In this document: piece after piece, positions 1 to 43,323 of the stretch
Layout: each line of letters begins with the position of its first letter
How positions within the stretch are numbered: the stretch's first letter is position 1
Sequence record: NZ_CP019224.1
Direction: 5' to 3' (one strand)
DNA from: a plasmid
DNA length: 64,000 nt
The notes under the pieces: model-generated
Told to the model about the DNA's origin: nothing
Databases searched by the model: none
What the model saw: the letters and a program-made list of their open reading frames with translations, nothing else
Program-made: the position numbers and the translations under genes

Positions 1-682
1 CGGTGTGTTGGGCGGCGGCGATCATGGCGTCACGCACGGCGACGTCGGCGGTGATGGCGATGCCGGCGCGGGTCGGTAGCGTGCGACTGATCTGGTGTCC
101 CTCGAGTGCGGCGGCGATCTCTGCTGCGGCACCGATGACAAGCTCGCCGTGGTCGCCGAGGGCGATCGGCGGGGCTGGCGGCAGGGGCGCGAATTCGGCT
201 TGGATGTCGCTGCGCGCCGGGCTGACTCGTTCACCGCCGAGCACCCGGTGCGCGGTGACCAGAGAGTCGGTGTAGGGGTAGGTGGGCCCGGTTGCGCCGG
301 TGTCGGGGTCGTACCACTGGCCTTCGGTGGTGACATCACGAGTCATCAGGCGGCGCAGCACTGGAATCCCGGCGGCGCGCAGCGCGTCGCTCAGGGCGTC
401 GAGGACGGTGACGGCATGCCATTCGTAGCTTTCGTCGCACACGGCCAGGAGCACGGCGGCGTGGTTAGTTTCGGGCCGCAGGTTGCATGTGGCCGGGAAG
501 TTGGTGGCTTGTTCGGCGCTGATCGTGACATCGAAGCGAATTGCGCTGCGGACCACCAGGTCGCTGGTGTGGGTGTCACGGTGCAGCATGTAGGCGACGA
601 CGCTGTTGGTGGGTGCGAAGCCCAGGAATGCTGCTGCGGCGGCAACGATGTCGGCTTCGGTGCGCAAGGCGGTGGTGGGCAT
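1..682 (-). CDS. hypothetical protein, N-terminal part only; C-terminus lies beyond the window start
   Basis: ATG at 682-680 sits at the same position relative to repeat A1 as the other cassette genes, with a GGAGAA RBS 8 nt upstream on the minus strand. The in-frame translation MPTTALRTEADIVAAAAFLGFAPTNSVVAYMLHRDTHTSDLVVRSAIRFDVTISAEQ... is protein-like and stays open to the window edge. It is absent from the ORF track because no stop codon falls in the window. Confidence 0.5.
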   Translation of the reverse strand, partial: MPTTALRTEADIVAAAAAFLGFAPTNSVVAYMLHRDTHTSDLVVRSAIRFDVTISAEQATNFPATCNLRPETNHAAVLLAVCDESYEWHAVTVLDALSDALRAAGIPVLRRLMTRDVTTEGQWYDPDTGATGPTYPYTDSLVTAHRVLGGERVSPARSDIQAEFAPLPPAPPIALGDHGELVIGAAAEIAAALEGHQISRTLPTRAGIAITADVAVRDAMIAAAQHT

Positions 683-1093
683 AGTGTTGTTCTCCGTTCT
701 GTGCGGTGAGTGGTGCGCCGGTCAGCGCTGGGGGAGTGGGCTAATCGGGTGAGGGTGGGCGGTCAACCCCGAAGAGTCCCGCGCCGAACGCAGCAGGGTT
801 TTCGGCCCGCGCTCGCCTGGCGCGATAGCGCCATCGGGCGAGCTGGCATAGGGCCGAAAAGGTCACTCGGCCTGCGTAGTTCGGTGTGGGCGTGGGTTGA
901 CCGGTCGGGCCCCCGGCCGATTAGACTGCGACCCCAGCTGACGGCAAACAAGGTGAGGGGCTACGGATTTGGTGGCCACCGGCAGGTGGCCAGTCCGGGC
1001 GCGCGGGGCGCGCCGGCACCTCAGCGGACCGGAAGAAAAAGGGGGGCCCGGCCAACCCCTCACGATGGGAGAAGTGGCCGGGCCCCGGGAATG
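683..1093 (-). repeat. structured intergenic cassette-boundary repeat, subtype A, copy A1 (about 411 bp)
   Basis: About 95% identical to 3038-3447 and 6181-6584. Same module order as the other copies: terminator, GC hairpins, covarying rod, RBS and start codon. Confidence 0.9.
1035..1088 (-). terminator. rho-independent terminator inside repeat A1 (minus strand)
   Basis: On the minus strand an 11-bp perfect stem gggcccggcca/tggccgggccc is followed by cccTTTTTcTT. It lies about 15-20 nt after the stop of gene 1104-1277. Confidence 0.55.
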
Positions 1094-1103
1094 GTGATAC
1101 GTG

Positions 1104-1277
1104 TCAGTCGATGTCGCAGGCGGCGTCGCGCAACGCCTCAAGTAGATCGACGTTCTCACCGAGAGTCATGGTGTCGTGCCCCCACTGGCTGTACGTGCCG
1201 GTGAGGGTGTCGATGTAGAACGGGATCTCAACGGTGCGGTTTTCGACACCGCGCGTGATGGTGCCCTCGATGATCAT
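1104..1277 (-). CDS. hypothetical small protein (57 aa)
   Basis: Start MIIEGTITRG at 1277 is preceded by an AAAGGAGA RBS. The upstream part of ORF 1104-1622 is Pro/Thr-rich junk. Confidence 0.5.
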   Translation of the reverse strand: MIIEGTITRGVENRTVEIPFYIDTLTGTYSQWGHDTMTLGENVDLLEALRDAACDID

Positions 1278-1311
1278 CGCGTATCTCCTTTCAGGGTGGG
1301 CGACTGCGGGT

Positions 1312-1770
1312 TTAGGCGCTCCGCCGATGGGCGGCGGGCAGGCTGATGCGGGTAATGCCCCACGGGGCGCGGTCGTAGCCAGAGAGCGCCTGGACCAACA
1401 TGTTCTGCAGCTCGCGGCAGAATGCGTAGGCCTCGGTGTGCTGCCAGTCCTTGGGTTCGCAGGCCTGATATTCGAAGCACTGCAACGCCTTGAGTACTTC
1501 GATGACCGACCAGCTGGTGTGCAGGGGCCGGGTGTAGCGGTACTCGTAGGGCTCGTGGATGGGGTTGTTGAAGTAGCAATAGTTGACCGAGGCGGTGTTG
1601 GCGTCGACGAGCATCTGGCCAACCTGGTCGAGGTTGTCGTCGGTGAGCTGGTTGACGCGGATCGGGTTGTCGAAGACCCAGGTCAGGTTGCCCAGCGGCC
1701 GGTGGAATCCTTGGTGGCCGGCCCACAGCAGGACGTTGATGTGTTCGGCTTCGACGACGTATGCGCTCAT
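1312..1770 (-). CDS. hypothetical protein (152 aa)
   Basis: ATG at 1770 lies immediately after repeat B1, with a GGAGAA RBS inside the repeat. Sequence MSAYVVEAEHINVLLWAGHQGFH.... The 55-aa N-terminal extension in the ORF track is a read-through of the repeat. Confidence 0.55.
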   Translation of the reverse strand: MSAYVVEAEHINVLLWAGHQGFHRPLGNLTWVFDNPIRVNQLTDDNLDQVGQMLVDANTASVNYCYFNNPIHEPYEYRYTRPLHTSWSVIEVLKALQCFEYQACEPKDWQHTEAYAFCRELQNMLVQALSGYDRAPWGITRISLPAAHRRSA

Positions 1771-2193
1771 TGGTGTGTTCTCCGTTTCGGATGGTGATGT
1801 GGTGCGCTGGTCAGCGCTGGGGTGCGGGTAAGCGGGTGAGGGTGGGCGGTCCACCCCGACGAGTCCCGCGGCGGGTGTTCGCCGGGTTTTGGGTCCGCGC
1901 TCGCCGGCGCGAAGCGCCCTTCGGCGAGCTGGCATTAGGACCCAAAACAGTCACTCGGCACGGCGAGGCCCGGTGTGGGCGTGGGTGGACCGGTCGGGGT
2001 CCCCACCCGCTTACCATGAGCGCCCCGCTGACGGCTTAAAAGGGTGAGGGGCTACGGATTTGGTGGCCACCGGCAGGTGGCCAGTCCGGTCGCGCGGGGC
2101 GCGCCGGCACCTCAGCGGACCGGAAGAAAAGGGGGGCCCGGCCACCCCCTCGTGGTGGGAGAGGCGGCCGGGCCCGGAGAGGTCCTTGGGTTA
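1771..2193 (-). repeat. structured intergenic cassette-boundary repeat, subtype B, copy B1 (about 423 bp)
   Basis: About 97% identical to 4920-5344 and to 7128-7444. It includes the stop codon and last two codons of the upstream gene at one end and the RBS at the other. Confidence 0.9.
2125..2178 (-). terminator. rho-independent terminator inside repeat B1
   Basis: GC stem ggcccggcc..ggccgggcc followed by a T-run on the minus strand, directly after the stop of gene 2191-2493. Confidence 0.5.
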
Positions 2194-2493
2194 GGTCAGG
2201 CCTGCCGCGCGGATGCGGTCGCGGATCAGCGCCAGGTCGACGCTCCGTTTTATTGGACTCACATAGTGACTGGCCCAATTTTCAAATCCGTTTATCGCGG
2301 CTTCCACTTCGCTTATTTGGACCTCAGGGCGGGTGATCGCGATTTCGTCCCCGTTCTCGCGGTCGTAGGCCTTGGCCACGACGGCGACAAGTTGTCCGAT
2401 TCCGTCGACAGTTTGTCGGAACCGCATCTTGCGGCGCTTGCCGTCGGCGGGGTCAATGAAGTACCAGCCTTGGCAGTAGTCGATGTCGGTCAT
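2191..2493 (-). CDS. hypothetical protein (100 aa)
   Basis: Internal start MTDIDYCQGWYFIDPADGKRRK at 2493 with an AAAGGA RBS 8 nt upstream. The upstream ORF portion is Pro-rich junk. Confidence 0.5.
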   Translation of the reverse strand: MTDIDYCQGWYFIDPADGKRRKMRFRQTVDGIGQLVAVVAKAYDRENGDEIAITRPEVQISEVEAAINGFENWASHYVSPIKRSVDLALIRDRIRAAGLT

Positions 2494-2575
2494 GTCGATC
2501 AGTCCTTTCTGGTCGGGATGGTACGCGGCCGGGCCGACGTTCACGTGTGACGCTGGCCCGGCCGCGAAAGTGGGG

Positions 2576-3037
2576 TTAGGCCGCCAGCAGGGCGGCGGCG
2601 GCAATGTGGTCGAGGGCGGTGTCGAGGTCCTCGTGGACGACGGAGGGTTGGTTGTCGACGGTGACGGTCCACATCGGCTGGTCGCCGATTCCGGCGGTCA
2701 GAGTGCAGGTGTGGCCGGCGTGGGCGGCGCGGTAGGACCAGTCGTGGCCGGGGACGGCGTGAAAGGTGAGTTCACTGGCGCGGACCTTGAGGATTCGGGT
2801 GTGCGGCTCGGTGTTGAGGTCAGGTGCGGTCGCCTCGACGGCGGCCATCTGACCGTGGGCATCGGTGGCGAACAGGACCAGGCGGTGCCCACTTTCGCGG
2901 GTGTAGTCATGCACGGTGGTGAGCCCGATGTCGCCGTGGTTGTGAAAGAGAATTCGGGTGATGCCGTACTGCTGGTCCTGGATGCGTCCTGCGGCCTCGT
3001 CGACGAGGTTGAAGGCGAGCTCGAATTCGTGATCCAT
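2576..3037 (-). CDS. hypothetical protein (153 aa)
   Basis: ATG at 3037 abuts repeat A2. Sequence MDHEFELAFNLVDEAAGRIQDQQYG.... Confidence 0.55.
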   Translation of the reverse strand: MDHEFELAFNLVDEAAGRIQDQQYGITRILFHNHGDIGLTTVHDYTRESGHRLVLFATDAHGQMAAVEATAPDLNTEPHTRILKVRASELTFHAVPGHDWSYRAAHAGHTCTLTAGIGDQPMWTVTVDNQPSVVHEDLDTALDHIAAAALLAA

Positions 3038-3447
3038 GATGTTTGTCCGTTCTGTGCGGTGAGTGGTGCGCCGGTCAGCGCTGGGGGAGTGGGCTAATCG
3101 GGTGAGGGTGGGCGGTCAACCCCGAAGAGTCCCGCGCCGAACGCAGCAGGGTTTTCGGCCCGCGCTCGCCTGGCGCGAAGCGCCATGGGGCGAGCTGGCA
3201 TAGGGCCGAAAAGGTCACTCGGCCTGCGTAGTTCGGTGTGGGCGTGGGTTGACCGGTCGGGGCCCCCGGCCGATTAGACTGCGACCCCAGCTGACGGCAA
3301 ACAAGGTGAGGGGCTACGGATTTGGTGGCCACCGCCAGGTGGCCAGTCCGGTCGCGCGGGGCGCGCCGGCACCTCAGCGGACCGGAAGAAAAAGGGGGGC
3401 CCGGCCAACCCCTCACGATGGGAGAAGTGGCCGGGCCCCGGGAATGA
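3038..3447 (-). repeat. structured intergenic cassette-boundary repeat, subtype A, copy A2
   Basis: Near-identical to A1 and A3. Rod closing helix 3074-3086 / 3285-3295. Confidence 0.9.
3387..3440 (-). terminator. rho-independent terminator inside repeat A2
   Basis: Stem gggcccggcca/tggccgggccc plus T-run on the minus strand, 20 nt after the TAA stop of 3459-4436. Confidence 0.55.
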
Positions 3448-3458
3448 TCTGAATGCCG

Positions 3459-4436
3459 TTATCCGTCAGTCATGGTGGTATCGCCGGCGGGGCGATGGCC
3501 GGAGATCTCGTGGTAGCCGATCCTGTCGGTCCACGAGGCCAGCTCGTGCCGGCGGACCGACACGGTTTTGGAGTTGACCCGAACCACGGGGTACCAGTGG
3601 CCGCGATACTTGATGAGGTCACCTTTGGTGATGCTGTCGCGGCTGTGCGGGTTGGCGGCGCCGGATGCTTGCAGATCCGCGTAAACCGCTTTCCAGTAGG
3701 CGATTTGATCGCCACGTTGGGCCATGCGCGCGATCACCTGTTCACGGTAGGACCCGGAGGCGGGGGCGAACTCGTCGACGTATTCGTAGGTGGCCGTGCG
3801 CGCGACGACGCGACGGTAACCATCGAGAATGCGTTGATCGCCACGTTGCTCGGCTTCCAACTTCTCGATGCGGTTCTTCACCGTCACCGGGTTGTAGCGG
3901 TGAGCGGTGGTGGTCGCGGCGGCCTGTGCGCGGCCCTGTGCCTGGTGGGCGAGATCGGTCGCGTCAATCGCGCGGCGGGTTGCGTCGTGGGCGCGGGTGA
4001 TCGCGTTACGGTGGCGGCTCTCGCTGTGATGGCCGATCTTGATCGGCTCTCCACCGGGAGGCAGGGCCTCTACGGCGCGCTGCTCGGATTCCCAGGCGGC
4101 CGAGGCGGCGGCGGCTTTGCGGTCGGCTTTGGCGGCCAGGGCGTCGGCGCGCTGCGCCTGGCGGTGAGCGCGGTCGGCTTCGGCCTCGGCTGTGGGGCGA
4201 TGAGTGTCGTCGACGTCGACAGTTACCGTGTGGCCGGCGGCGCGCAGCGATTCGGCGGCACGCTCGATTTTGTATCGGTTGGGTTGACGATCGCGGCTGC
4301 CGGCGATACCCCATACACCGAGTGTGCGAAACCAACGGAATCCGGCGGCTTTGAGGATGGTGTTGGTGCCGTCTCCGCGGGCGGTGCCGTGTACGAGGGT
4401 TCCTTCAGCGGCGGTGTGGGTGATTTCGATAGTCAT
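3459..4436 (-). CDS. hypothetical protein (325 aa), DUF3560-like, common on actinobacterial plasmids and phages
   Basis: Intact ORF MTIEITHTAAEGTLVHGTARGDGT... with an Ala/Arg-rich coiled central region. The family assignment is from memory, not a search. Confidence 0.55.
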   Translation of the reverse strand: MTIEITHTAAEGTLVHGTARGDGTNTILKAAGFRWFRTLGVWGIAGSRDRQPNRYKIERAAESLRAAGHTVTVDVDDTHRPTAEAEADRAHRQAQRADALAAKADRKAAAASAAWESEQRAVEALPPGGEPIKIGHHSESRHRNAITRAHDATRRAIDATDLAHQAQGRAQAAATTTAHRYNPVTVKNRIEKLEAEQRGDQRILDGYRRVVARTATYEYVDEFAPASGSYREQVIARMAQRGDQIAYWKAVYADLQASGAANPHSRDSITKGDLIKYRGHWYPVVRVNSKTVSVRRHELASWTDRIGYHEISGHRPAGDTTMTDG

Positions 4437-4556
4437 TGGTGTTGTGCTCCTGGTCTTTTCGGGTTGAGGGGTGGGGTTGTTGGGATGAAAAGAGCCCGGC
4501 CGGCTTCTGAGTGATGCGGAAACAGGCCGGGCCCCGAGTTCGTGGTGAGGGCGTTG

Positions 4557-4919
4557 TCACGCTGTGACGAGTTGTCGGTGCACGTTTCGGCTGGCGTTGC
4601 CTTGGGTCAACCCGAGTCGCGAGGCGACGCGTGCCACGGTCCGCGAGGTTGTGTGAAGGCGCCAGGCGATGAGCTCTGGGTCGATTCGGCCATACATGCG
4701 TCGCACGGCTTCGTCACGGTCTTTGCCGCGCAGCGGCAGGCGTAACCCGTCGTTGGCGACTTGCAGGACAGCAAGCTCGTCGACGTCGGCCATTCGGTCG
4801 TCTTCACGGTGCCGCTCGTGCCTGTGTGGGTCGTGTGCTGACGTCTCGGGGGAGGACAGTGCTTGGGCTTCGTCTGGGCCGGTGATGGCCCATGGGTCTG
4901 GGGTGCTGATAGTGGTCAT
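4557..4919 (-). CDS. hypothetical protein with C-terminal HTH (120 aa)
   Basis: ATG at 4919 abuts repeat B2. The C-terminus WRLHTTSRTVARVASRLGL has an HTH-like pattern. Confidence 0.5.
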   Translation of the reverse strand: MTTISTPDPWAITGPDEAQALSSPETSAHDPHRHERHREDDRMADVDELAVLQVANDGLRLPLRGKDRDEAVRRMYGRIDPELIAWRLHTTSRTVARVASRLGLTQGNASRNVHRQLVTA

Positions 4920-5344
4920 TGGTGTGTTCTCCGTTTCGGATGGTGATGTGGTGCGCTGGTCAGCGCTGGGGTGCGGGTAAGCGGGTGAGGGTGGGCGGTC
5001 CACCCCGACGAGTCCCGCGGCGGGTGTTCGCCGGGTTTTGGGTCCGCGCTCGCCGGCGCGAAGCGCCCTTCGGCGAGCTGGCATTAGGACCCAAAACAGT
5101 CACTCGGCACGGCGAGGCCCGGTGTGGGCGTGGGTGGACCGGTCGGGGTCCCCACCCGCTTACCATGAGCGCCCCGCTGACGGCTTAAAAAGGGTGAGGG
5201 GCTACGGATTTGGTGGCCACCGGCAGGTGGCCAGTCCGGTCGCGCGGGGCGCGCCGGCACCGTGTGAGCTGGAAGAAAAAGGGGGGGCCCGGCCAACCCC
5301 TCGTGGTGGGAGAGGCGGCCGGGCCCGGAGAGGTCCTTGGGTTA
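4920..5344 (-). repeat. structured intergenic cassette-boundary repeat, subtype B, copy B2
   Basis: Near-identical to B1. Rod closing helix 4959-4971 / 5172-5181. Includes the stop codon of 5342-5755. Confidence 0.9.
5274..5330 (-). terminator. rho-independent terminator inside repeat B2
   Basis: GC stem plus T-run on the minus strand after the stop of 5342-5755. Confidence 0.5.
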
Positions 5345-5755
5345 GTACGGGTGCAGCTCGGCGTTGACTTCAGCGGCGGCCTCGGCGACGTCGTTGAGCA
5401 GGTCGACTTCCGCTTCGTCGAGTCGAGCGACGTCGCAGGTGCTGTAGTTAGCGTGATCGAGGACCGCGCTGCGTTCTTCTCGCAGCGTGTGCAGTCGTTT
5501 GAGGGCCTGGTCGAGCTCAAGGCGGGGATGGGTTTCGCGGCGCACGTGCGCGATGACGTGGCCGAGGTAGTCGAGGATTTCGCGGCGACTTCCTTGCAGG
5601 GCGAGACCGTCGCCGTTTCCGTTCCACAGTCCCAGGACGAAGGGCCCGCTGACTGCATCTTCGTCCTCGGGGTGGAATTTCTCGATTGCCCGCTCGCGCG
5701 GGTGCAGGGTGTAGAGGCTGTCCGCGGCGTGGCCCCATTCGATGTGATTACTCAT
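5342..5755 (-). CDS. hypothetical protein (137 aa)
   Basis: Internal ATG at 5755 gives MSNHIEWGHAADSLYTLHPRERAIEKF.... The upstream ORF part is Arg/Pro junk. Confidence 0.5.
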   Translation of the reverse strand: MSNHIEWGHAADSLYTLHPRERAIEKFHPEDEDAVSGPFVLGLWNGNGDGLALQGSRREILDYLGHVIAHVRRETHPRLELDQALKRLHTLREERSAVLDHANYSTCDVARLDEAEVDLLNDVAEAAAEVNAELHPY

Positions 5756-5784
5756 GGTGGATGCCTTGTGTGAGGTAGGTGGTT

Positions 5785-6180
5785 TCAGGCGACGACGTGG
5801 GTCAGGTGCGCTTGGATGCGGTGGTCGAGTTTGAGAATCTCGATCATTGCCGGCGTCTCGGTGTGCTCGCGGCGGACCGCGACGTCGACGCGGGTGATGA
5901 TCGTGGCCGCGATGCCGGGATTGCCACCTTTGAGGGCGAACGCAGCGGCCAGGGTGAGGGCTTCGATTCGGGCCTGTCCGCTGAGGTGATCGCCGATACG
6001 GCCCCACAGCAGTGCGGCCCGTAGCGGCCGGCGCTCGGCGATCTTGTAGAGCAGGGTCTTATAGCTGTCGTCGACCAGGAGTGGGGCGGCGAGCTCGGCG
6101 AGGCCTCGGCTGGGGTTGCAGGTCCCGTTGACGAGTTGGTTACGCAGATCAGCCAGGATCGCGATGCGGTTGTAGCACAT
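5785..6180 (-). CDS. hypothetical protein (131 aa)
   Basis: ATG at 6180 abuts repeat A3. Sequence MCYNRIAILADLRNQLVNG.... Confidence 0.5.
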   Translation of the reverse strand: MCYNRIAILADLRNQLVNGTCNPSRGLAELAAPLLVDDSYKTLLYKIAERRPLRAALLWGRIGDHLSGQARIEALTLAAAFALKGGNPGIAATIITRVDVAVRREHTETPAMIEILKLDHRIQAHLTHVVA

Positions 6181-6584
6181 GATGTTTGTCCGTTCTGTGC
6201 GGTGATGTGGTGCGCTGGTCAGCGCTGGGGGAGTGGGCTAATCGGGTGAGGGTGGGCGGTCAACCCCGAAGAGTCCCGCGCCGAACGCAGCAGGGTTTTC
6301 GGCCCGCGCTCGCCTGGCGCGAAGCGCCATGGGGCGAGCTGGCATAGGGCCGAAAAGGTCACTGGGCCTGCGTAGTTCGGTGTGGGCGTGGGTTGACCGG
6401 TCGGGGCCCCCGGCCGATTAGACTGCGACCCCTGCTGACGGCAAATAAGGTGAGGGGCTACGGATTTGGTGGCCACCGGCAGGTGGCCAGTCCGGTCGCG
6501 CGGGGCGCGCCGGCACCTCAGCGGACCGGAAGAAAAGGGGGGCCCGGCCACCCCCCGATGGGAGAGGCGGCCGGGCCCGGAATG
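6181..6584 (-). repeat. structured intergenic cassette-boundary repeat, subtype A, copy A3
   Basis: Near-identical to A1 and A2, with small variation in the terminator loop. Confidence 0.9.
6531..6580 (-). terminator. rho-independent terminator inside repeat A3
   Basis: GC stem ggcccggcc/ggccgggcc plus T-run on the minus strand after the stop of 6588-7127. Confidence 0.5.
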
Positions 6585-6587
6585 TGT

Positions 6588-7127
6588 TCAGGCCGCTCGA
6601 TAGTCGGCGTCGGTGGGATCGGCTTTGTAGCGCTCACCGTCTGCGAAGACCGCGATCGCCACTCGGTGGACCTGTCGAAACGCGTCGATCATCGACAGGA
6701 TCGCGGCGCGGTCACGCAATTGCCAGGTGATCGGGCCGGTGTAGAGCTCGACCCAGTGCAGTTTCGCGGTCTTGAGCTTGTTGAGCGCCGACTGTGCCAC
6801 GACAGCGTAAGCCGGTGCCCTCGTCCACTCGACGCCGAGCACTGCGCGGCCGGCGGGCTCCTCGGCCACGGCTCCAGCGGTGGGGATTTCCGCGGGGACA
6901 TGGATCATCTGAGTGCGCGCAGCGACGAAGGCCTCGAGCAGGCCCTGGGCTGTCTGGCAGTTCTGCAGGCTCATGTGCATGCCGCCGACCGTGATGCCGA
7001 TACGGGCGGACGGGGTGCGGGCGTGGTGCACGGTGATGTCGGGTTCGAGCTGGCCTTTGATGGACACGATGCTGTGAGTAATGACGCCGGCCGGCGTGAC
7101 GTAAATGGGTGTGGCGGATTTCGTCAT
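6588..7127 (-). CDS. hypothetical protein (179 aa)
   Basis: ATG at 7127 abuts repeat B3. Sequence MTKSATPIYVTPAGVITHSIVSIKGQ.... Confidence 0.5.
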   Translation of the reverse strand: MTKSATPIYVTPAGVITHSIVSIKGQLEPDITVHHARTPSARIGITVGGMHMSLQNCQTAQGLLEAFVAARTQMIHVPAEIPTAGAVAEEPAGRAVLGVEWTRAPAYAVVAQSALNKLKTAKLHWVELYTGPITWQLRDRAAILSMIDAFRQVHRVAIAVFADGERYKADPTDADYRAA

Positions 7128-7444
7128 TGGTGTGTTCTCCGTTTCGGATGGTGATGTGGTGCGCTGGTCAGCGCTGGGGTGCGGGTAAGCGGGTGAGGGT
7201 GGGCGGTCCACCCCGACGAGTCCCGCGGCGGGTGTTCGCCGGGTTTTGGGTCCGCGCTCGCCGGCGCGAAGCGCCCTTCGGCGAGCTGGCATTAGGACCC
7301 AAAACAGTCACTCGGCACGGCGAGGCCCGGTGTGGGCGTGGGTGGACCGGTCGGGGTCCCCACCCGCTTACCATGAGCGCCCCGCTGACGGCTTAAAAGG
7401 GTGAGGGGCTACGGATTTGGTGGCCACCGGCAGGTGGCCAGTCC
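7128..7444 (-). repeat. structured cassette-boundary repeat, subtype B, copy B3, truncated
   Basis: Homology to B1/B2 ends abruptly after the tggccaccggcaggtggcca hairpin at about 7444. The GC hairpin and terminator modules are missing. Confidence 0.85.
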
Positions 7445-7599
7445 CAGCGGCTGTACGCTGGTGTGATGTTTGAAGAGGCCTTCGCGCGTGACCTCATGAA
7501 GGGGCCGCAGGGTGTTGCGGTGCCGGCGATGACCTGGTTGGTGACCGGGCAGTGGCCGGTACCGGAGTTGAGCTTCGACGTGTCGTATCCGCGAGCTGA

Positions 7600-8328
7600 T
7601 TACTCGGGATTGCTGGCGTTTTGACCGGGTCGTTCGGGCGCGCTAAGTGCGCGAAGGCCACTGGATAGTGAGGCGAAGCGGCCGTACTGTTGGCCGGCGG
7701 CGGTGGTTTTTTCACCTAGCCAAATCCCGATGATTTGCGCGTAACCCTGTGAGGTTGGCGTCCACACCGGGCCTCCGGAGTCACCGGGGATGCTGGGCGG
7801 CATCCCTGTGGTCAGGTATTGGTCTCGGCCTTGGGCGGCCGCGATTTGTCCGCAGTGCTGTCCGCTGGAAACTCCGATGCGGCAGACAGTTTCGCCGACT
7901 TGGGGTTCGGGATGGTCGTCGGTAAAGAGCGTGTGGTTGGCGTCGATGAAGGCCGATGCCATGGAGTTGGTGTTGAAGTCGATCAGCGCGTAGTCGGCGC
8001 CGCCGCTGCGCGGCGACTCGAAAATGGTGCGCACGAACTTGCCGGTGAGTCCGCTTCGCTTGTCGCGCGCATAGCCTGACGCGGGGTCAGAGCGGCAGTG
8101 GGCGGCGGTGATGGCGTAGGTGTGCAGGTCCGCGCCGGTGTAGACGTAGCCGATGGTGCAGAACTGGTTGCCTCCGGTGGGGTTGATGTAGTCGACCTCT
8201 TCGCCGGGGCTGACCACGGCTAGCGCGGCGTGTGCCGAGGGTGGACCGGCTAGAGCCAGAGTTGCTGCGGTGAGCACCCCTGCGGCGGCGGCGAATCGGC
8301 GGGTGATGGCGTGCATGAGTGGGGTCAC
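7600..8328 (-). CDS. secreted trypsin-like (S1 family) serine protease
   Basis: Signal peptide MTPLMHAITRRFAAAAGVLTAATLALAGPPSAHA, catalytic His motif TAAHC, GDSGGPV serine motif, and conserved Cys pairs. Confidence 0.75.
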   Translation of the reverse strand: MTPLMHAITRRFAAAAGVLTAATLALAGPPSAHAALAVVSPGEEVDYINPTGGNQFCTIGYVYTGADLHTYAITAAHCRSDPASGYARDKRSGLTGKFVRTIFESPRSGGADYALIDFNTNSMASAFIDANHTLFTDDHPEPQVGETVCRIGVSSGQHCGQIAAAQGRDQYLTTGMPPSIPGDSGGPVWTPTSQGYAQIIGIWLGEKTTAAGQQYGRFASLSSGLRALSAPERPGQNASNPE

Positions 8329-8506: not shown

Positions 8507-9796
8507 TCATGCAGACTCCTTCAACCGATCATGGCCAGCGTGTATCGCTGGCCTGCGTGTGTTGTTCCGGTAGTCAGTGGTGAGCTGCTCGAGGAGGGCA
8601 TCAATGGCGGCCGCCTCGGCGCGCTGCCTGGGTGAGGGCTGCTCGCCGATGTCGTGGTGCAGGTCTTGGTGGGTGTGTTGCACTGTGCGCAGTTGTTCGG
8701 CGGCTTCGGCGAGCCATCGTGCGGCGTTGCGTGCGCTGCCGGGTACCAGGCCGCGACGGTCCTGGTGCGCGCGGGCTTCCTGCAGGGCGACGTCGAAACG
8801 CTCGGCGGCCACCCGGGCTTTGGCGGCCGCGGCCAAGGTGTGCAGTTCGGCGGGCGTGATGACGGAAAGGCCTCCGAAAAGCTCGGCGCGGTTCCACAGG
8901 CCGGCGTTGACGTGATCGGTGACGTCGGCTTTGTCGACGTCGAGGGCGGGTAAGAGCACCACGACTTGGGCAGTGATGCTGCGTAGGCGTGCATAGAGGT
9001 TGATCGCCCGCTGATAACCGGCGAGGTCTCGGTCGGCGACGATGGCGACCTTGAGTCCGGCGAAGTCGTCGACGAGTTCGGCGGGGAAGTTGGCGGCTCC
9101 TTGGGCGTTGGTGGTGGCCAGCCGGCCGAGTGCAGTCAGGGTGTCGGCGTCTTTTTCACCTTCGGTGACCCATATCCATGCGCCGCGTGTGGCTGCGGCC
9201 GCAATTGCGGCGGGCCGGTATAACACCGGGGTGAATCCGTACGGCTTGCGGTACACCCACTGGCCTCCGTCGCGGTAGCGCTGCCGGAACTGTTTGTGGG
9301 GTCGACCAGTGCATGCGCATTCTTCGCGGACGACCTGCTGCACCGGGGTTCCCGTGGGGGTCAGGTAGGTGTAGACCCGGGCCCGGCGCCAGTGGTGGTT
9401 GGTGTCTTCGCGCCCCGCGGTGATGCGTGCGGGTAACGGCCCTGGCCCAGGAGTTCGCCTGGCCCTGGGCTGCGTGACGCGAGGCCAGCGTTGCCCGGTT
9501 GCGGGGCTGGGGTTGTCGAACAGATCGGCCAGGCGCAGACCCAGTGCGGCCGCGATGGCGGCCGCGGGGGCTTGGCAGCTAAAGCAGTGCAGCAGGACCG
9601 CACCGCCAGTGCCGGCGCGGGTGTTTTCTCGCCACCCAACCGACAGCGAGGGGCAGTGGTCGGTGTGCAGGGGGCAGCTGGCCATGAAGGCCTCCGAACC
9701 ACGCGGGCGGATGGCGTGCCCCGCTGCTTGCAGGGCGTCCCGCACGTGGTCCAAAGCGGCTCCGGGACTGTGGAGTTGGTGTGCGCTCGCCATCAC
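8507..9796 (-). CDS. DNA primase, CHC2 zinc finger plus Toprim domain (plasmid/phage type)
   Basis: CPLHTDHCPSLSV...CFSC zinc-binding motif, then Toprim WVTEGEKDADTL and IVADRDLAG. Confidence 0.7.
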   Translation of the reverse strand: MMASAHQLHSPGAALDHVRDALQAAGHAIRPRGSEAFMASCPLHTDHCPSLSVGWRENTRAGTGGAVLLHCFSCQAPAAAIAAALGLRLADLFDNPSPATGQRWPRVTQPRARRTPGPGPLPARITAGREDTNHHWRRARVYTYLTPTGTPVQQVVREECACTGRPHKQFRQRYRDGGQWVYRKPYGFTPVLYRPAAIAAAATRGAWIWVTEGEKDADTLTALGRLATTNAQGAANFPAELVDDFAGLKVAIVADRDLAGYQRAINLYARLRSITAQVVVLLPALDVDKADVTDHVNAGLWNRAELFGGLSVITPAELHTLAAAAKARVAAERFDVALQEARAHQDRRGLVPGSARNAARWLAEAAEQLRTVQHTHQDLHHDIGEQPSPRQRAEAAAIDALLEQLTTDYRNNTRRPAIHAGHDRLKESA

Positions 9797-11116: not shown

Positions 11117-12763
11117 CTACTCCTTTACCGCATCAGCCAAGTACTGCTCATACACCTCGTCGGTGCTTTTGGCCTTGGTCACGACTTCCTCGACGGGAGC
11201 CAGCGGATAGTCGTTGTCGGCGAGCCAGCGCAGGTACTCAGCGCCGCCGACGTGATGGCCCCACCAGCCGCTGTTGTTGCGCCAAGCATCCTTGGGGGTG
11301 CGCGATTCGAGCGCACCGAGAATCAGGCCCAGCGTGATCACCTGCGCGCGTGCGTCGCCGTTGGCGGGTAGCTCGGCCACGAGCTTGGCCACGGCCTGGC
11401 CGCTGTCGAGTCCGAGCAGTTCGGCGGTGGTGTCCAGCGCGTTGTTGTTCGTGAGCAACGCACTGTCACGGGCCAAGCAGTCCGCCACGAAGAGACCGGC
11501 GCCCTTGGGAGGTGTCTTTCGCGCCAACAGCTTCTTGACGAAATCACGCCGCACGCCAAGGGCCGCATCACCGAGCTTGTTGAGCGCCAACACTTTACGG
11601 CGCTCACGCTTTTCGGTCTCGGCCCGCTCGATCGCCGCCTGCTGGCGTGCGGCTTCGCGGGCCTCGTCGTCCAGGTCGACTGCTTCGCCGGTGTCGGTGT
11701 CCACCAGCCCGGCTTGCCGCGCGAACCAGCTCTGCGGCGTCAGACCGGCGGCGCGGTAGTCGAGGCAGTAGTAATCGGGAGTGAACACCTGCGCCTCGGT
11801 GACCGTGTTGGCGTGGCGCATCCCCTCTGCGGGTGTGGCGTCCGGCTGATCCTCGGTCTCCCAGTCCACGCTCTCTTCGTCAATCACTTCACCGGTTTCC
11901 ACGTCGCACCATGCGGTGTCCTCAACGAGCAACACAGCCCAATGGGCGGGGTGCGTCACCGCGTCGTCGTCGGCTTCCTCCCCGTCAGCGGTCACCAGGT
12001 GATGCAGCGGGATGCAAGCCGGGTCCCACGAATCCGGGCGCTGCTCAAGGAGAGTGAACCCCTTGTCGGCGTAGGCCGGGGCCACTTGGGCGCGGGCCTC
12101 GTCAGTGGCACGTTGCTGGCGCAGTTGGGCGACCGTGTGCTCGAACCAGCCGCTGTCAGCCGCACTCATCAGCCGCTCAACGGCACCGGGCATGTCCTCA
12201 AACTCGGTGATCGCCGCCGCTTCGACCAGGCTCAGCTGGCCACTAGCCAGCGCATCCATGGCCGTCGCCGACCGCGAGGCCGTGTGGGCGGCCTTCACAG
12301 CGTCCTTGCCCACAGACAGCTTCTTGGCCACCTTGGTCACCGACATCCCCGCATCGATCATCTGCTGGATACCGCGCGCCCGTTGCGCGTCGGTGATGTC
12401 GAGCTTTTGATCGTTGGTGACGATCTGGTGCACGATGCGGTCGATGGTTTCCTGGGTGGCATCGGCAGCAGTGGACGGCAGCACATAGACGGGGACGCTG
12501 GATAATCCCGCTTCGCGGGCAGCAAGAGTGCGCCGCTGTCCGTTGCGGACACGGATGACCTCGGGCCGTTCCGCGTCGCGGACAGCCGTAATCGGCACCA
12601 GGACGCCATTTTCGGCGATGTTGGCGATGAACGCCTTGCTCAGCGCGGCATCGTCGCGAACATTGTCACCAATGTCGAGCAACGCCGGATCAAGGTGTTC
12701 CAAGGTGCCGATCGGCTGGTCAGTGGCATTGCCCGCAGTGTCGGTGCTGGTGATGTCGGTCAT
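11117..12763 (-). CDS. ParB/Srx-domain protein (548 aa), KorB/ParB-like
   Basis: N-terminal ParB box VRNGQRRTLAAREAGLSSVPVYVL, with a long acidic C-terminal extension. Confidence 0.7.
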   Translation of the reverse strand: MTDITSTDTAGNATDQPIGTLEHLDPALLDIGDNVRDDAALSKAFIANIAENGVLVPITAVRDAERPEVIRVRNGQRRTLAAREAGLSSVPVYVLPSTAADATQETIDRIVHQIVTNDQKLDITDAQRARGIQQMIDAGMSVTKVAKKLSVGKDAVKAAHTASRSATAMDALASGQLSLVEAAAITEFEDMPGAVERLMSAADSGWFEHTVAQLRQQRATDEARAQVAPAYADKGFTLLEQRPDSWDPACIPLHHLVTADGEEADDDAVTHPAHWAVLLVEDTAWCDVETGEVIDEESVDWETEDQPDATPAEGMRHANTVTEAQVFTPDYYCLDYRAAGLTPQSWFARQAGLVDTDTGEAVDLDDEAREAARQQAAIERAETEKRERRKVLALNKLGDAALGVRRDFVKKLLARKTPPKGAGLFVADCLARDSALLTNNNALDTTAELLGLDSGQAVAKLVAELPANGDARAQVITLGLILGALESRTPKDAWRNNSGWWGHHVGGAEYLRWLADNDYPLAPVEEVVTKAKSTDEVYEQYLADAVKE

Positions 12764-28016: not shown

Positions 28017-29879
28017 TCACGCCGCATTGACCTGTCGGCCGGGGGCGTCGCTGTTCCAGACCCAACCGGGCAGCGCTTGCAGGCGTGCGGTTCGGCGCGG
28101 GTCCAGCGCGCCTTGCCGGTAGGTGTAGCGCTGCGTGTTGACCCATTGACCCAGCCGGAACCTGTCGGCGCTGATGTGGCCGTGCGGGACACGGGCGTGG
28201 CCGTGCTCGTCGACGAACTGGGTCAAGGCGGTGAAGCCACGTTCCCAGCGCTGCTCGCCGCTGGCGCCCCATACCCAACCCGGCAAGGCTTCCAGCCGTG
28301 CCGCACGGTCGGCGTCCAGCGCGCCTTGCCGATGGGTGTGGCGCTGTGCGTTGACCCATTGGCCTAGGCGAATGCCGTCACCGGTGATGTGTGCTGACGG
28401 GACGCGAGCGTGGCCGTGCTCGTCGACGAACTGGGTCAATGCGCGGAACCTGCCGTCCCAGCCGCAGTAAACGCCTGGGGTGCGGTCGCGCCGGCGCCAT
28501 ACCCAGCCTGGTAAGGCTTCCAGTCGTGCGGCGCGGCCGTCGTCGAGCTCGCCGCGGTGGTGCTTGCGGCGTTGGGCGGACACCCAGTCACCGAGGTGGA
28601 AGCTGTCGCTGCAGGTATGCCGTGACTCAACGTTGGCGTGGCCGTGCTCGTCGACGAACTGGGTGAGGGCGGTGAAGCCGCGTTCCCACTGCTCGTCGAG
28701 CCTGTCGCTCCAGGTCCAGCCGGGCGTGGCTTCTAGCCGTGCGACACGCTCGGCATTGACGCGGCCTTGGCGGTACTTGCGGCGCTGGTCACGCGCCCAC
28801 TGGCCAAGTTTGATCCCGTCGCTGGTGATGTAGTCGTTGGGGAAGCGGGCGTGACCGTGCTCGGCCACATACGCCCCTAACGTGGCGTAGAGCCGTTCCC
28901 ACAGGTCCTCGCGGCTTTCTCGCCATACCCAGCCCGGCAATGCTGCTAGCCGCGCGGCGCGAGCGGGGTTGAGCCGGTTGTCCTGATGGGAAGCGCGTTG
29001 GTTATCCACCCAGTCGCCGAGGCGAAAGTTGTCGGTGGTGATGTGAAGTCGAGCCACGTTGGCGTGGCCGTGTTCGGCAACGTACTGGGTGAGCGCGGTG
29101 AAGCCGTGTTCCCAGCGCTGCTCGAGCCACTGCTCGTGGCCCGCGTTCCCGTTCCAGGCCCAGCCCGGCAACGTTTCTAGACGTGCCGCGCGTGCGGGGT
29201 CGAGGCGGTTTTTGCGCTGGTCTCGCCGCTGGTCTGTTACCCATGCGCCGAGGCGGTGACCGTCATCGGTGATGTGGGAGCCCGGGACGCGGGCGTGGCC
29301 ATGTTGGGCGACGAACTGGGTCAGCGCGGCAAAGCCGCGTTCCCAGCGGTCTGCGCGGCTGTCGCGCCATACCCAGCCGGGCAACGTTTCTAGACGTGCC
29401 GCGCGTGCGGGGTCAAGGGTGTTTTGTTGGTGGCGGGAACGTTGGTTGCCCACCCATGTTCCGAGCGGGGTGCCGTCTCGAGAGACATGGTTTTGCGGGA
29501 CGCGCGCATGCCCGTGCTGAGCGACGAACTGGGTCAGCGCGGCGAACATGGCATCCCAATAGGCCTGGTGGGGTGTAGCCCAGCGCGGGCCGAGCAACGC
29601 GGCAAGCTGCGCTGCCCGCTCATCATCAAGTAGGTTGGTGCGGTGGGCTTTTCGCTGCTCATTAAGCCAGCGGCCCGGGAAGCGACCGTTTTCAGTTCGG
29701 TAGTCCTCGGGTATGCGGGCGTGGCCATGCTCGGCGATGAACGCGGTCAGTTCGTCCAGCATGTCAGCCCAGCGAGTCGGTGTGCGATGCTGCGGCCCAG
29801 CGTGCTGCGGTTCGGGGTGATCGCCGGCGGCCGGCGATGCGGGAGTTTGTGGTACCAAATCCTGTGTGGCCGTGGTCAT
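28017..29879 (-). CDS. helicase-associated (HA) domain repeat protein, about 9 tandem HA repeats, no helicase core
   Basis: Repeated about 66-aa units AEHGHARIPEDYRTENGRFPGRWLNEQRKAHRTNLLDDERAAQLAAL.... Start taken at MTTATQDL. Confidence 0.65.
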   Translation of the reverse strand: MTTATQDLVPQTPASPAAGDHPEPQHAGPQHRTPTRWADMLDELTAFIAEHGHARIPEDYRTENGRFPGRWLNEQRKAHRTNLLDDERAAQLAALLGPRWATPHQAYWDAMFAALTQFVAQHGHARVPQNHVSRDGTPLGTWVGNQRSRHQQNTLDPARAARLETLPGWVWRDSRADRWERGFAALTQFVAQHGHARVPGSHITDDGHRLGAWVTDQRRDQRKNRLDPARAARLETLPGWAWNGNAGHEQWLEQRWEHGFTALTQYVAEHGHANVARLHITTDNFRLGDWVDNQRASHQDNRLNPARAARLAALPGWVWRESREDLWERLYATLGAYVAEHGHARFPNDYITSDGIKLGQWARDQRRKYRQGRVNAERVARLEATPGWTWSDRLDEQWERGFTALTQFVDEHGHANVESRHTCSDSFHLGDWVSAQRRKHHRGELDDGRAARLEALPGWVWRRRDRTPGVYCGWDGRFRALTQFVDEHGHARVPSAHITGDGIRLGQWVNAQRHTHRQGALDADRAARLEALPGWVWGASGEQRWERGFTALTQFVDEHGHARVPHGHISADRFRLGQWVNTQRYTYRQGALDPRRTARLQALPGWVWNSDAPGRQVNAA

Positions 29880-30255
29880 TTGGTGTCCTTTCTGCGTCGG
29901 GTGATCCGTGATGTTTGTGCACATGTGTGAATCACAGGCTGGGAGAATGGGAGTCGCCCCTATTTAGGTGCGGGACGGCCCTGGGTGGGTGAATGGTGTT
30001 CGCCAGCTTGGACTCGTGGTCGTAGACAGCTCGGAATCAGGCCGGTGAAAGCGCCAGTGCGCGCGCCGTGGCGGTGGTGCGTGACGTTGTTGGCGGCCGA
30101 TGCTGGCACCGCAGGGCCGGCTGGCCGGCGCGGTTCGCGGCTGAGGTGGTCAAGCAGGCTCGCCTCGTCAATCGCCGAGGTGAACACTTCGTGGATGGTC
30201 ATCATGAAAGTCCTTGTGTATGTTGGGGATAAGGGTCCGGTCACCGGCCTCGGGC

Positions 30256-40050: not shown

Positions 40051-40769
40051 ACGAAAGCTATTCCGCAGCAGCGGATTTAGCGGACACCATAACCATGTTG
40101 ATGACGGAGCCGCGGCCTTTGCCGCGGCAGTTGAAGCGGCTAAAGAAACGTAGCGAGTGGCCGATCGATGAAGCGCTGCTAGTTTTCGAAGCGGCGGTGG
40201 AGTATGTCGCTATCCGCAATAACTATGACGCCGTGGCCGATTGGAAGAGGCGTCAGGCAAAGCTCAACGGTTGGTTAGGGGTTCTTCAACGTGAGCCGGC
40301 ACCGATGTCCGATGAGCAATTTGCTGCCAGCATAGTCGCGTGCGGGAGAGTGGACCCGACCGAGCTGGAAGCAGTTCTGGTCGGTACTAGGCACACGGCG
40401 GCCTTGTTGGACGACATTGCCGAGGTGATAGCCGAGCACCAGCGCGAGCACGAAGAAACTGAGCGGATGAACCGGGCGGTGGCGCGTGGGCGCGAGCGGG
40501 TGAGGATGATCATGAAGCGGTGCGTGGAGCGTCGCGCAGAAATCAGCGCGGCTACAGAAGAACGCCTACAACAAATTTCGCCGGAAGATGCCGCCTCCCA
40601 GAAGTTAGCTATTGAGGCCGCTTATCCGGATCTGATCGTGCTGAGCGAGACAGCGTGTGAACAGATCAACGCGCAGACGCGCCGCGTGTTGGACGCGCAT
40701 CGACGCACGGCAGCGATGCCGATTTGGCAGTTCTGGGAGATGGCCTACAAAGACCTAATCGAGGATTGA
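40047..40769 (+). CDS. hypothetical protein (240 aa)
   Basis: GTG overlaps the upstream stop (GTGA). Sequence VNESYSAAADLADTITMLMTEPRPLPRQLKRLKK.... Confidence 0.4.
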   Translation: MNESYSAAADLADTITMLMTEPRPLPRQLKRLKKRSEWPIDEALLVFEAAVEYVAIRNNYDAVADWKRRQAKLNGWLGVLQREPAPMSDEQFAASIVACGRVDPTELEAVLVGTRHTAALLDDIAEVIAEHQREHEETERMNRAVARGRERVRMIMKRCVERRAEISAATEERLQQISPEDAASQKLAIEAAYPDLIVLSETACEQINAQTRRVLDAHRRTAAMPIWQFWEMAYKDLIED

Positions 40770-40844
40770 ATACCGAGATCGTAGCCGTGATCGCCGCCTT
40801 TGGTGGACATCGTGGCCGTGGGGGCAGTGGTGCTAGGAGGGACC

Positions 40845-41089
40845 GTTAGGGCGTTGGCCAGTAGCCGACAACGCCGTTGAATTCGAGGTCAGTTTGGGTG
40901 AAGTCGTTGCCGAGTGGCGTAGGCCATGGTGTCGCCGTAGTTGACGGCTGCGGGGTGGCGTCCCTTCCCGTAGTGGAGGTAGGCGCTGTGGGCGTCGATC
41001 GCGTGTTCGAGGGTGAAGGGTTCGGGCGCGTGCGCGCGCGCGTCTTCCCGGCGGTATGACCGTTGCCGTTGAGTGTGTTTGAGTTGCAC
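40845..41089 (-). pseudogene. truncated vapC (PIN) remnant: C-terminal 66 aa only
   Basis: About 85% identical at DNA level to 45075-45330. Protein [34 protein letters not shown] matches the VapC C-terminus. The 5' part is missing at the IS607 boundary. Confidence 0.65.
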
Positions 41090-42740: not shown

Positions 42741-42741
42741 A

Positions 42742-43323
42742 TCACGCAGCCCCTGGCTCCCGCTTGGTGGCCGTCACCGCACGCATCGCCCGATTCCGCG
42801 CACCACGACGGCCGTAGAGCCGCGCACACATACTGGTCAGGACCTCGATCATGTCGCGCACCAGATCATCGGTGGTCTCACCCGGATCAGCGACCACGAT
42901 CCGGCGGCCCTGCGCCGACAACGCCGCTTCCAGGTGTTCCACCCCGAAACGCGCCAGCCGATCCCGATGCTCCACAACGATCACCCTCGCATCGGGGTCC
43001 GACAAGATGCGGCGCAGCTTGGGCCGCTTCCCATTCAGCCCGGAACCGACCTCGCACACCACCTGGCCCACCTCAAGATCACGCTCCGTGGCCCACGCGG
43101 TCACCCGCGCCACCTGACGGTCCAGATCCGAGCGCTGATCATGGCTGGACACCCGCGCATACACCACCACCGTCGCCGCCGCACCCGATACCGAGGCTGC
43201 CGCCTTGACCAGAATCAGCCGCCCAACCCGCTCCGCGGGCACCGGCAACGTCCCCTCCCGAAACCACCGATAAGCGGTATGCCGGTTCACACCAACCGAT
43301 TCCGCCCAATCCGCCAGATTCAC
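42742..43323 (-). CDS. tnpA: IS607-family TnpA: MerR-like HTH plus serine recombinase (resolvase) domain
   Basis: MNLADWAESVGVNRHTAYRWFREG as the HTH. VVYARVSSHDQRSDLDRQ as the catalytic Ser region. Confidence 0.75.
   Translation of the reverse strand: MNLADWAESVGVNRHTAYRWFREGTLPVPAERVGRLILVKAAASVSGAAATVVVYARVSSHDQRSDLDRQVARVTAWATERDLEVGQVVCEVGSGLNGKRPKLRRILSDPDARVIVVEHRDRLARFGVEHLEAALSAQGRRIVVADPGETTDDLVRDMIEVLTSMCARLYGRRGARNRAMRAVTATKREPGAA

Follow-up and report, generated by a model that had tools for sequence, protein, structure and literature searches.

The plasmid sequence NZ_CP019224.1 carries, within the 64,000-nucleotide stretch analysed here (the window; position 1 is its first letter), an array of six related non-coding units of about 400 nt, each of which precedes a minus-strand gene. 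Every unit contains a long imperfect hairpin that folds best on the plus strand, the template strand of these genes; promoter-like -35 and -10 elements lie on its 3' arm, and its stem displays compensatory changes among homologous copies. Based on this dataset, we hypothesize that the unit is a non-homologous analogue of Frpo, the single-stranded DNA (ssDNA) promoter of the F plasmid, repeated as insulated cassettes, and we put the probability of this reading at roughly 0.55. A first-pass annotation of the same DNA had described a palindromic hairpin, a GC hairpin and a terminator at 973-1088 as a conserved module. These parts do not form a self-standing element, but represent the gene-upstream end of the repeat.

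In gene sense, the unit runs from the terminator through the short motif TCTTCCGG, the GC hairpin, the palindromic hairpin (hairpin P in the following), the 17-mer ATCCGTAGCCCCTCACC and the imperfect hairpin of about 230 nt to a leader with the ribosome-binding site (RBS) and the ATG. The six copies returned by a profile search (c1 to c6, Table 1) are intergenic among minus-strand genes and end exactly at GGAGAA and ATG; about 50 nt of leader, with the RBS inside, separate the predicted start of transcription from the ATG. All three parts of the flagged module can be read from the sequence, the 13-mer noted earlier lying at 1001-1013, and an alignment of the six copies confirms near-identity of the module between the two subtypes of the unit, which diverge mainly in the long hairpin. 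The plus strand contains the palindrome in five perfect copies and one copy with an altered loop, i.e. at six sites in the window compared to 0.01 in shuffled sequences, which bears out its repetition. The statement that every full copy carries the module holds for c1-c5, but not for c6 (7128-7445), where the palindrome is kept while GC hairpin and terminator are missing; both accompany the palindrome in 5/6 copies.

Sensitive blastn analysis of 72,556 plasmids, a collection expected to include F-like plasmids, displays the unit in plasmids of Mycobacteriaceae only (31 records with at most 13 places each), including pMyong1, pMAH135, pRAW and plasmids of M. gilvum, M. poriferae, M. gordonae and M. 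chelonae. It is without annotation in all of these records. A profile search of ten mycobacterial conjugative plasmid regions and the window lists 74 copies, 100% of them on the gene strand; the copies are limited to one region per plasmid, and the gene content between them varies from plasmid to plasmid. The scan of a genome collection relied on a 15-base motif that is too short, most of the at least 120 loci being chance matches, and confirmation with nhmmer adds at least 14 loci (13 in Mycobacteriaceae, one in an unclassified metagenome-assembled genome of Actinomycetota), which sets a minimum for the spread of the unit. No match was obtained in the phage collection, and the unit is therefore not a phage element. 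Rfam returned nothing at gathering score over the whole window and nothing at E <= 1 in 600-2300, and a description of the unit was not found in the published literature.

The core of the repeat is the long hairpin, the DNA fold of which reaches z = -8.6. A MAFFT alignment of 23 representatives, which misses the lower (-10) part of the stem, gives 43 consensus pairs, and compensatory changes are seen in 21 of these. RNAalifold on a hidden Markov model-based alignment of all copies returned essentially no structure, as the arms fell out of register, and folds of the individual sequences were used instead. The plus strand folds 12-34 kcal/mol better than the gene-sense strand in 6/6 copies of the window. 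Compared with dinucleotide shuffles, its mean z amounts to -4.65 with DNA parameters and -4.70 with RNA parameters, versus -2.60 and -2.81 for the gene-sense strand, and the plus strand has the better z in 11/12 copies (DNA parameters) and 12/12 copies (RNA parameters). The gene-sense strand does not surpass shuffles in four distant copies.

The unpaired positions point in the same direction. Mismatches in symmetric internal loops of the plus strand are G.G in 263, A.G in 154, G.T in 38 and T.T in 24 cases, C.T (15), A.C (14), C.C (6) and A.A (5) being rarer; on the mRNA, G.G, A.G and G.T would become C.C, C.U and A.C. In the nearest-neighbour ranking the mismatch types of the plus strand are the more stable ones and their mRNA counterparts the least stable. 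The ratio of G.T to A.C wobbles is modest (38 to 14), and the asymmetry of G.G and A.G is stronger. Plus-strand loops have the form C-G-N(1-2)-A-G in 46/53 cases for hairpin P and in 51/67 cases for the apex of the long hairpin, with the loop sequences GCA, GAA, GGCA, GCCA and GATA, a form that we take to be that of the known, exceptionally stable mini-hairpin loops of DNA. Most simply, these observations are read as folding of the plus (template) strand as DNA. It had been argued that the terminator is oriented for the minus strand and thereby fixes the functional strand of the element. The terminator is canonical on the minus strand only, which is the strand of all flanking genes, and the argument stands for the direction of transcription, but not for the element itself, in which the plus strand was apparently selected to fold.

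Across copies, the 3' arm of the long hairpin displays the pattern TTGACC-N19/20-xAxxxT. The -10-like hexamer occurs among the 23 representatives as TAGACT, TAGGCT, TACCAT, CACACT, CATACT, TACTCT and TACGAT, i.e. with A2 and T6 invariant and positions 3-5 variable. In DNA folds of 59 unique copies, collected by a pattern search that presupposes xAxxxT, positions 1-4 of the -35 are Watson-Crick paired in 55-57 copies and A2 is unpaired in 44, while T6 is Watson-Crick paired in 5, unpaired in 31 and in a G.T pair in 21. As A2 and T6 are mostly unpaired, pairing cannot explain their invariance. It is these two -10 bases of the non-template strand that are captured by sigma. If the 3' arm takes the role of the non-template strand, transcription would use the 5' arm and the adjoining flank as template, and RNA would probably exit at the base of the hairpin towards the RBS and the gene, in the manner of Frpo. 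A consensus scan of the window from 1 to 8000 detected no sigma-70-type double-stranded promoter on either strand.

A small RNA in plus sense, starting from xAxxxT in duplex DNA, was considered and rejected as the main reading, because a spacing of 19-20 nt is poor and the conserved complementary arm would be left unexplained. The 5' flank of the long hairpin on the plus strand is variable coding sequence, and plus-sense RNA across the hairpin would thus lack a conserved promoter. The 5' arm of the hairpin also contains, at 731-761 of the plus strand and at the same place in other copies, five G runs (GGGGG-AGT-GGG-CTAATC-GGG-TGA-GGG-T-GGG) that make up a canonical G-quadruplex motif overlapping the region opposite the -10/-35 spacer. 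The sequence GGTGAGGG in this G-rich arm recurs as a direct repeat inside the 17-mer (952-968).

Frpo of the F plasmid is a non-coding, repeated element of the leading region, which forms an ssDNA stem-loop with -35 and -10 boxes; Frpo1 and Frpo2 share 92% identity, and the element is required for early expression and inactivated by conversion to the duplex (PMC9849209, PMC11541004). With Frpo1, Frpo2 and the single-strand initiation (ssi) element of ColIb-P9, the unit shares its non-coding nature, its repetition within a plasmid and its position before early genes that are read towards the presumed origin of transfer (oriT). It likewise folds into a long, imperfect and stable single-strand stem-loop that rebuilds -35 and -10 within the stem, oriented into the downstream genes of the same strand, and no conventional promoter is predicted for it. 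However, no similarity to Frpo or ssi emerged from the sensitive blastn search, and since its matches are confined to Mycobacteriaceae, the unit is to be seen as an analogue rather than a family member by descent. Further differences are the phylum and a GC content of about 66%, a -10 of mycobacterial style (xAxxxT instead of TATAAT), and an additional module per copy comprising two short stem-loops, the 17-mer and a terminator. Up to 13 copies per plasmid (blastn places) compare to about two Frpo-homologous promoters per element in an enterobacterial survey (PMC11541004). The activity of the unit in ssDNA is a prediction.

This data may suggest a mechanism by which the genes of the array are expressed transiently upon entry into a recipient. 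The plus strand, as template of the cassette genes, would be the strand that is transferred as ssDNA. On arrival each unit would fold, and the hairpin of about 230 nt, as computed, would rebuild a duplex -35 (TTGACC) together with a partly melted -10 (xAxxxT). Host RNA polymerase could start there, read out of the base of the hairpin and transcribe a leader of about 50 nt with GGAGAA, followed by one or two genes, until the RNA stops at the intrinsic terminator seen in the sequence, which would insulate each cassette from the next. Synthesis of the complementary strand would prevent the hairpins from forming, and the genes, having no predicted ordinary promoter, would fall silent.

The surroundings of the array bear on the question which strand is transferred. 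The window belongs to a mycobacterial conjugative plasmid of the pRAW/pMAH135 type, with an ESX/type VII secretion locus (EccB, EccC, EccD, mycosin) at 48-63 kb. A gene for a DnaG/Toprim-type primase (8507-9796, minus strand; PHROG DNA primase, E = 4e-17) and one for a ParB-like protein of 548 aa (11117-12763, minus strand) directly precede the array, with nrdH between the two in related plasmids. The primase homologue of pMAH135 is annotated as 'telomere-binding protein'. In every plasmid with a MobF relaxase annotated near the array, the order is ParB-like gene, nrdH, (primase), array and mobF, the array and the downstream mobF being co-oriented. This layout matches the geometry of leading genes, oriT and tra genes in the F plasmid. 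In F the leading genes are read towards oriT and the tra genes away from it, the transferred strand being the template for both. Leading-region genes are encoded on the T-strand (PMC11541004). By analogy, we take the array region as the putative leading region, i.e. the first DNA to enter the recipient.

Just upstream of mobF, pMyong1 (L001, 28780-28850) and three further plasmid regions (L002, L006, L008) contain a conserved non-coding block, ACACCTCTTGCACTCAGGTCAC, followed by the short inverted repeat GTTAGG-N3-CCTAAC. In plasmids of fast-growing species the block is another one, GGCACATTGGCACAAG, and the inverted repeat behind it measures 12 bp. Block and inverted repeat are a candidate oriT/nick region, and the conserved block of pMyong1 falls within about 113,700-113,890 of NC_020275. 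The strand antisense to mobF reads the inverted repeat and then the block; in F and R388 the inverted repeat precedes the nick, an order that weakly supports transfer of this strand. The search for a nick site or oriT upstream of mobF found the block and short inverted repeats, and nothing that marks the nicked strand.

Several observations weigh against an ssDNA promoter. The spacing of 19-20 nt on the hexamer-bearing arm is long for a sigma-70-type promoter, and several -10 variants (CACACT, CATACT) are without the first T. The pairing counts in 59 copies stem from a search that assumes the hexamer, and the invariance of A2 and T6 rests on alignments; all copies of the unit are related, so that none of the counts represents independent events. 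The transferred strand is deduced from the geometry and from the repeat-then-block order upstream of mobF, and the roles of the two small hairpins are conjectural. The putative anti-defence role of the cargo genes is unsupported by annotation, as PHROGs and Pfam give the cassette proteins no recognisable anti-defence annotation. Finally, a repeated element of very similar appearance, EGeRS1, lies in pLS20 on the non-template strand relative to transfer and has no promoter boxes in its fold, for which reason its authors rejected the idea of an ssDNA promoter (PMC8708921). This case is the main reason for caution.

EGeRS1 of the pLS20-family Bacillus plasmids resembles the unit in many respects. 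It consists of conserved units (420-750 bp in pLS20), present in five copies on pLS20 and in several per plasmid within the family, confined to one region, placed directly upstream of an RBS, and rich in inverted repeats with branched folds; there is no constitutive double-stranded promoter, the 5' part blocks read-through, and the downstream genes are variable and without assigned function (PMC8708921). The mycobacterial unit displays the same layout, being repeated, rich in inverted repeats and placed before the RBS of several operons in one region. EGeRS1 is far more GC-rich than its plasmid (PMC8708921). Membership by >60% identity to pLS20 EGeRS1, the rule used by its authors, does not apply, as no Bacillus plasmid is among the blastn matches, and the lack of a sigma-70-type promoter and the terminators at the 5' end of c1-c5 are predictions from sequence. 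The unit differs from EGeRS1 by clear -35 and -10 elements in its stem and by a geometry that fits a transferred template strand.

This similarity lends some weight to the idea that the unit acts as RNA of the gene strand, either as a structured leader or as an insulator of the EGeRS1 type that blocks read-through and controls translation or antitermination, with the promoter located upstream of the ParB/primase operon. Among close copies, gene-sense RNA also reaches a good fold (z = -6.9), terminator and RBS both belong to the gene sense, TCTTCCGG pairs with the Shine-Dalgarno (SD) sequence in the fold, the first copy follows an operon without terminator, and the same layout is found in pLS20 EGeRS1 (PMC8708921). 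However, the gene-sense strand of distant copies folds at shuffle level where the plus strand still folds, and the RNA would have to accommodate C.C and C.U mismatches and loops of the type UGC or UGCC. The conserved TTGAC and the invariant, mostly unpaired A and T of xAxxxT would find no explanation, and a terminator at the 5' end of the unit would halt the RNA before it reaches the leader. We therefore regard this account as unlikely, although not far-fetched.

The terminator itself reads as an ordinary intrinsic terminator, which would insulate each cassette. Terminators in the array consist of 17-19 GC-rich pairs, behind which the gene strand reads TTTTT(C)TT, and are placed 3' of the stop codon of the preceding gene. 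In c1, the stem GGGGCCCGGCCA (1043-1054) pairs with TGGCCGGGCCCC (1075-1086), the fold extends the pairing to about 19 pairs, and AAAAA at 1036-1040 of the plus strand corresponds to TTTTT 3' of the hairpin on the minus strand. Fold and scan thus agree on a GC-rich hairpin with U-tract, on the transcribed strand and past a gene, the stop codon of the gene preceding c1 being at about 1104. We assign the terminator to the preceding cassette, since the first copy of every array is without it and the stem of the window type aligns in about half of the copies. Unlike a canonical terminator, it is fused to a conserved downstream element and duplicated with it, and about half of the homologous copies replace or lack it.

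The motif TCTTCCGG (CCGGAAGA on the plus strand), directly 3' of the terminator, is retained in the copies of M. poriferae and M. gilvum even without the T-run. It pairs with the RBS region AACGGAGAA (686-698), about 330 nt downstream, and closes the whole unit in the minimum-energy folds of either strand. It may act as an anti-Shine-Dalgarno sequence or as a closing stem; as the former, it would hide the SD solely in RNAs that read past the terminator.

Hairpin P is conserved as a structure. The exact palindrome is found in this plasmid and in pMyong1 only, and other plasmids carry a different hairpin at the same position (Table 1); absence of the palindrome from homologues, which was to count against the module, applies to the sequence but not to the stem-loop. 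In 36 sequences, 90% of the cells pair, compared to 28-66% with the partner slid, and 27 cells are changed on both sides, a count reached by 0/500 shuffles. At position 3 of the stem, 19 sequences have GC and 12 have CG; at position 6, 20 have GC and 11 have AU. Several stem variants exist on a single plasmid (ELW1, M. gordonae). The position of the GC hairpin is occupied in homologues by other GC-rich hairpins, e.g. GCGCAC-TAG-GTGCG or GCGCGCC-GGG-CGCGA, as judged by eye because it aligns too poorly across plasmids for formal covariation counts. The best-conserved block of the module alignment is the 17-mer. Compensatory changes and coexisting variants imply that structure is kept and not sequence, which speaks for a folded single strand rather than a double-stranded operator. 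Within the folded template-strand domain, hairpin P and the GC hairpin represent stem-loops conserved in structure, and a duplex operator is less likely.

Together with the 17-mer, the short hairpins may serve to shield the promoter stem from invasion by its 3' flank, to keep the region free of single-strand-binding protein, to provide a priming signal for the adjacent plasmid primase, or to sequester the SD in read-through RNA. A broader and rather improbable version of the ssDNA-promoter hypothesis would see a modular early-entry system of pRAW-type plasmids, with up to about a dozen cassettes, each composed of an ssDNA-only promoter, one or two genes and a terminator, in which the two C-GNA-G hairpins and the 17-mer are a signal for the plasmid primase or another plasmid or host protein. 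If so, transcription as well as priming would start at every cassette junction, and cassettes could be shuffled between plasmids by means of the repeats.

Priming may also be considered on its own. The single-strand origins (sso) ssoA and ssoU and the G4-type ssi are orientation-specific signals of several hundred bases that are active only as folded ssDNA, RNA polymerase or primase starting within their hairpins; unlike the unit, they are single-copy and not coupled to an RBS and a gene. If the hairpins of the unit were initiation signals of this kind, the plasmid primase or RNA polymerase would start the complementary strand at multiple origins. The DnaG/Toprim-type primase gene directly upstream of the array, the strand-specific folding of the plus strand, and the presence of several short and stable stem-loops beside the 17-mer, which is conserved and unpaired, would agree with this. 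Similarity to known ssi or sso was not found (nothing in Rfam, mycobacterial plasmids only in blast), conserved sso motifs not having been searched specifically, and priming alone leaves the strict placement before RBS and ATG and the terminator unexplained. As the explanation of the hairpins it appears decidedly unlikely; since Frpo RNA also primes DNA synthesis, it is compatible with the ssDNA-promoter hypothesis.

The first-pass annotation had taken the palindrome for a plausible protein-binding site. In its most specific form, this would make it the duplex operator of a dimeric plasmid repressor, such as the helix-turn-helix (HTH)-like protein encoded at 4557-4919 or a ParB/KorB-like protein, which silences the cassettes after establishment in the manner of Reg576 of p576. 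A perfect 8-4-8 palindrome once per cassette, kept in c6 where the rest of the module is missing, would suit such a role; symmetric changes of half-sites could reflect co-evolution with the protein, HTH regulators are annotated within some arrays, and a precedent for repressor-based control exists (PMC6294495). However, an operator would be expected to keep the same recognition sequence at all sites beside a double-stranded promoter, whereas the palindrome differs between plasmids, several stem variants coexist on one plasmid, and no double-stranded promoter that could be repressed is predicted nearby. On one strand the type of loop is conserved and agrees with that of the long-hairpin apex, pointing to folding rather than duplex recognition. 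Sequence-specific binding is therefore not borne out by the homologues, and we consider the operator quite improbable. Least credible is a selfish or recombinogenic repeat (resembling a miniature inverted-repeat transposable element or a cassette-shuffling site) devoid of a regulatory role: the many copies, the two subtypes with hybrids and the differing cassette content among plasmids would allow it, but orientation and the exact end at RBS/ATG are uniform in 74/74 copies, terminal inverted repeats or target duplications were not seen, the structure is conserved through compensatory change across genera, and the copies are restricted to one region per plasmid.

To our knowledge, experimental proof of ssDNA promoters is limited to a few enterobacterial plasmids, and most descriptions of such promoters come from E. 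coli plasmids. A survey of 2024 searched by similarity to enterobacterial sequences, and its text does not mention mycobacteria or actinobacteria (PMC11541004). A non-homologous equivalent in mycobacteria would suggest an independent origin of this strategy in Actinobacteria. If our hypothesis is correct, the unit marks where the leading region lies in pRAW-like plasmids, a group able to transfer among slow-growing mycobacteria, M. tuberculosis among them (PMC4173767). It would further single out about 10-20 small genes per plasmid as candidate early establishment or anti-defence factors, and predict the transferred strand and the rough position of oriT.

The cassette genes of the window (1-7127, minus strand) include, according to Pfam and PHROGs, a DUF4192 protein (1-682), a weakly DUF4192-like protein of 131 aa, and a DUF3560 protein as second gene of one cassette. 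Gene 4557-4919 encodes a protein of 120 aa with an HTH-like C-terminus, and three cassette proteins have no match in Pfam or PHROGs. Along 684-7570 the two subtypes of the unit alternate strictly (c1/c3/c5 versus c2/c4/c6), which places the nearest near-identical long hairpin always two cassettes away and might limit deletions by direct-repeat recombination. Copy c5 appears to be a hybrid that combines a subtype-1 core with a terminator arm similar to subtype 2. In pMSPYR101 of M. gilvum (L005, 17316-28669), three identical insertions of the IS110 family interrupt the array, and at least some of these separate a cassette gene from the unit upstream of it.

Table 1. Coordinates of unit c1 and its parts, of the other units of the array, and forms of hairpin P in related plasmids (terminators of c1 and c3-c5 and the minus-strand reading of c2 according to the consensus scan)
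Feature	Position	Strand	Remarks
Unit c1	684-1092	-	terminator 1059-1043
RBS and ATG of the DUF4192 gene behind c1	680-695	-	GGAGAA at 690-695, ATG at 682-680
Long imperfect hairpin, repeat core	718-945	+	apex 818-833, loop GATA
-35-like TTGACC, 3' arm	897-902	+	Watson-Crick paired with GGTCAA at 762-767
-10-like TAGACT, 3' arm	922-927	+	19 nt past the -35; 17 nt on the opposite arm
Conserved 17-mer	952-968		GGTGAGGGGCTACGGAT on the plus strand, ATCCGTAGCCCCTCACC in gene sense; unpaired in folds
Palindromic hairpin P	973-992		TGGCCACCGGCAGGTGGCCA; 8-bp stem, 4-nt loop, GGCA loop on the plus strand
GC hairpin	995-1016		CCGGGCGCGCGGGGCGCGCCGG (CCGG-GCGCGC-GGG-GCGCGC-CGG); sequence, folds
Conserved motif TCTTCCGG	1029-1036	-	directly 3' of the terminator
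Intrinsic terminator of the preceding (gene-upstream) cassette	1036-1086	-	sequence, RNA fold, terminator scan
Unit c2, subtype 2	1771-2182	-	palindrome 2064-2083, terminator 2132-2149 (2149-2132); precedes gene 1312-1770
Unit c3, subtype 1	3037-3446	-	palindrome 3326-3345 (loop variant), terminator 3412-3396; precedes gene 2576-3037
Unit c4, subtype 2	4920-5333	-	palindrome 5214-5233, terminator 5300-5284; precedes gene 4557-4919
Unit c5, subtype 1	6180-6585	-	palindrome 6470-6489, terminator 6578-6540; precedes gene 5785-6180
Unit c6, subtype 2, first of the array	7128-7445	-	palindrome 7421-7440 and long hairpin; 7128-7570 in the profile search; precedes gene 6588-7127
Hairpin P, pMAH135		gene sense	TGGCCACC-TGC-GGTGGCCA
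Hairpin P, M. poriferae and M. gilvum		gene sense	TGCCCGCC-TGC-GGCGGGCA
Hairpin P, ELW1		gene sense	TGGCCGCC-TGGC-GGCGGCCG
Hairpin P, pRAW		gene sense	GGCCCC-CAC-GGGGCC

Other parts of the window contain repeats of a different kind. A protein of 635 aa (28017-29924, minus strand) is composed of eight repeats of the helicase-associated (HA, PF03457) domain, which explain four direct repeats of about 300 nt at 28141-29538. The gene for tRNA-Val (38837-38918) overlaps a segment of 120 nt with a second copy at 44852-44971, further segments of 40821-41020 are repeated within 45054-45285, and a transposase gene of the Mutator family (43442-44797) is located just before the second copies; the region 38773-45285 has the appearance of a rearrangement or duplication associated with an insertion sequence. 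Between 45846 and 48391 there are three tandem copies, about 1.04-1.19 kb apart and two of them 99% identical, of a segment that lies upstream of and overlaps the start of the NlpC/P60 gene (48090-49130), where the ESX locus begins.

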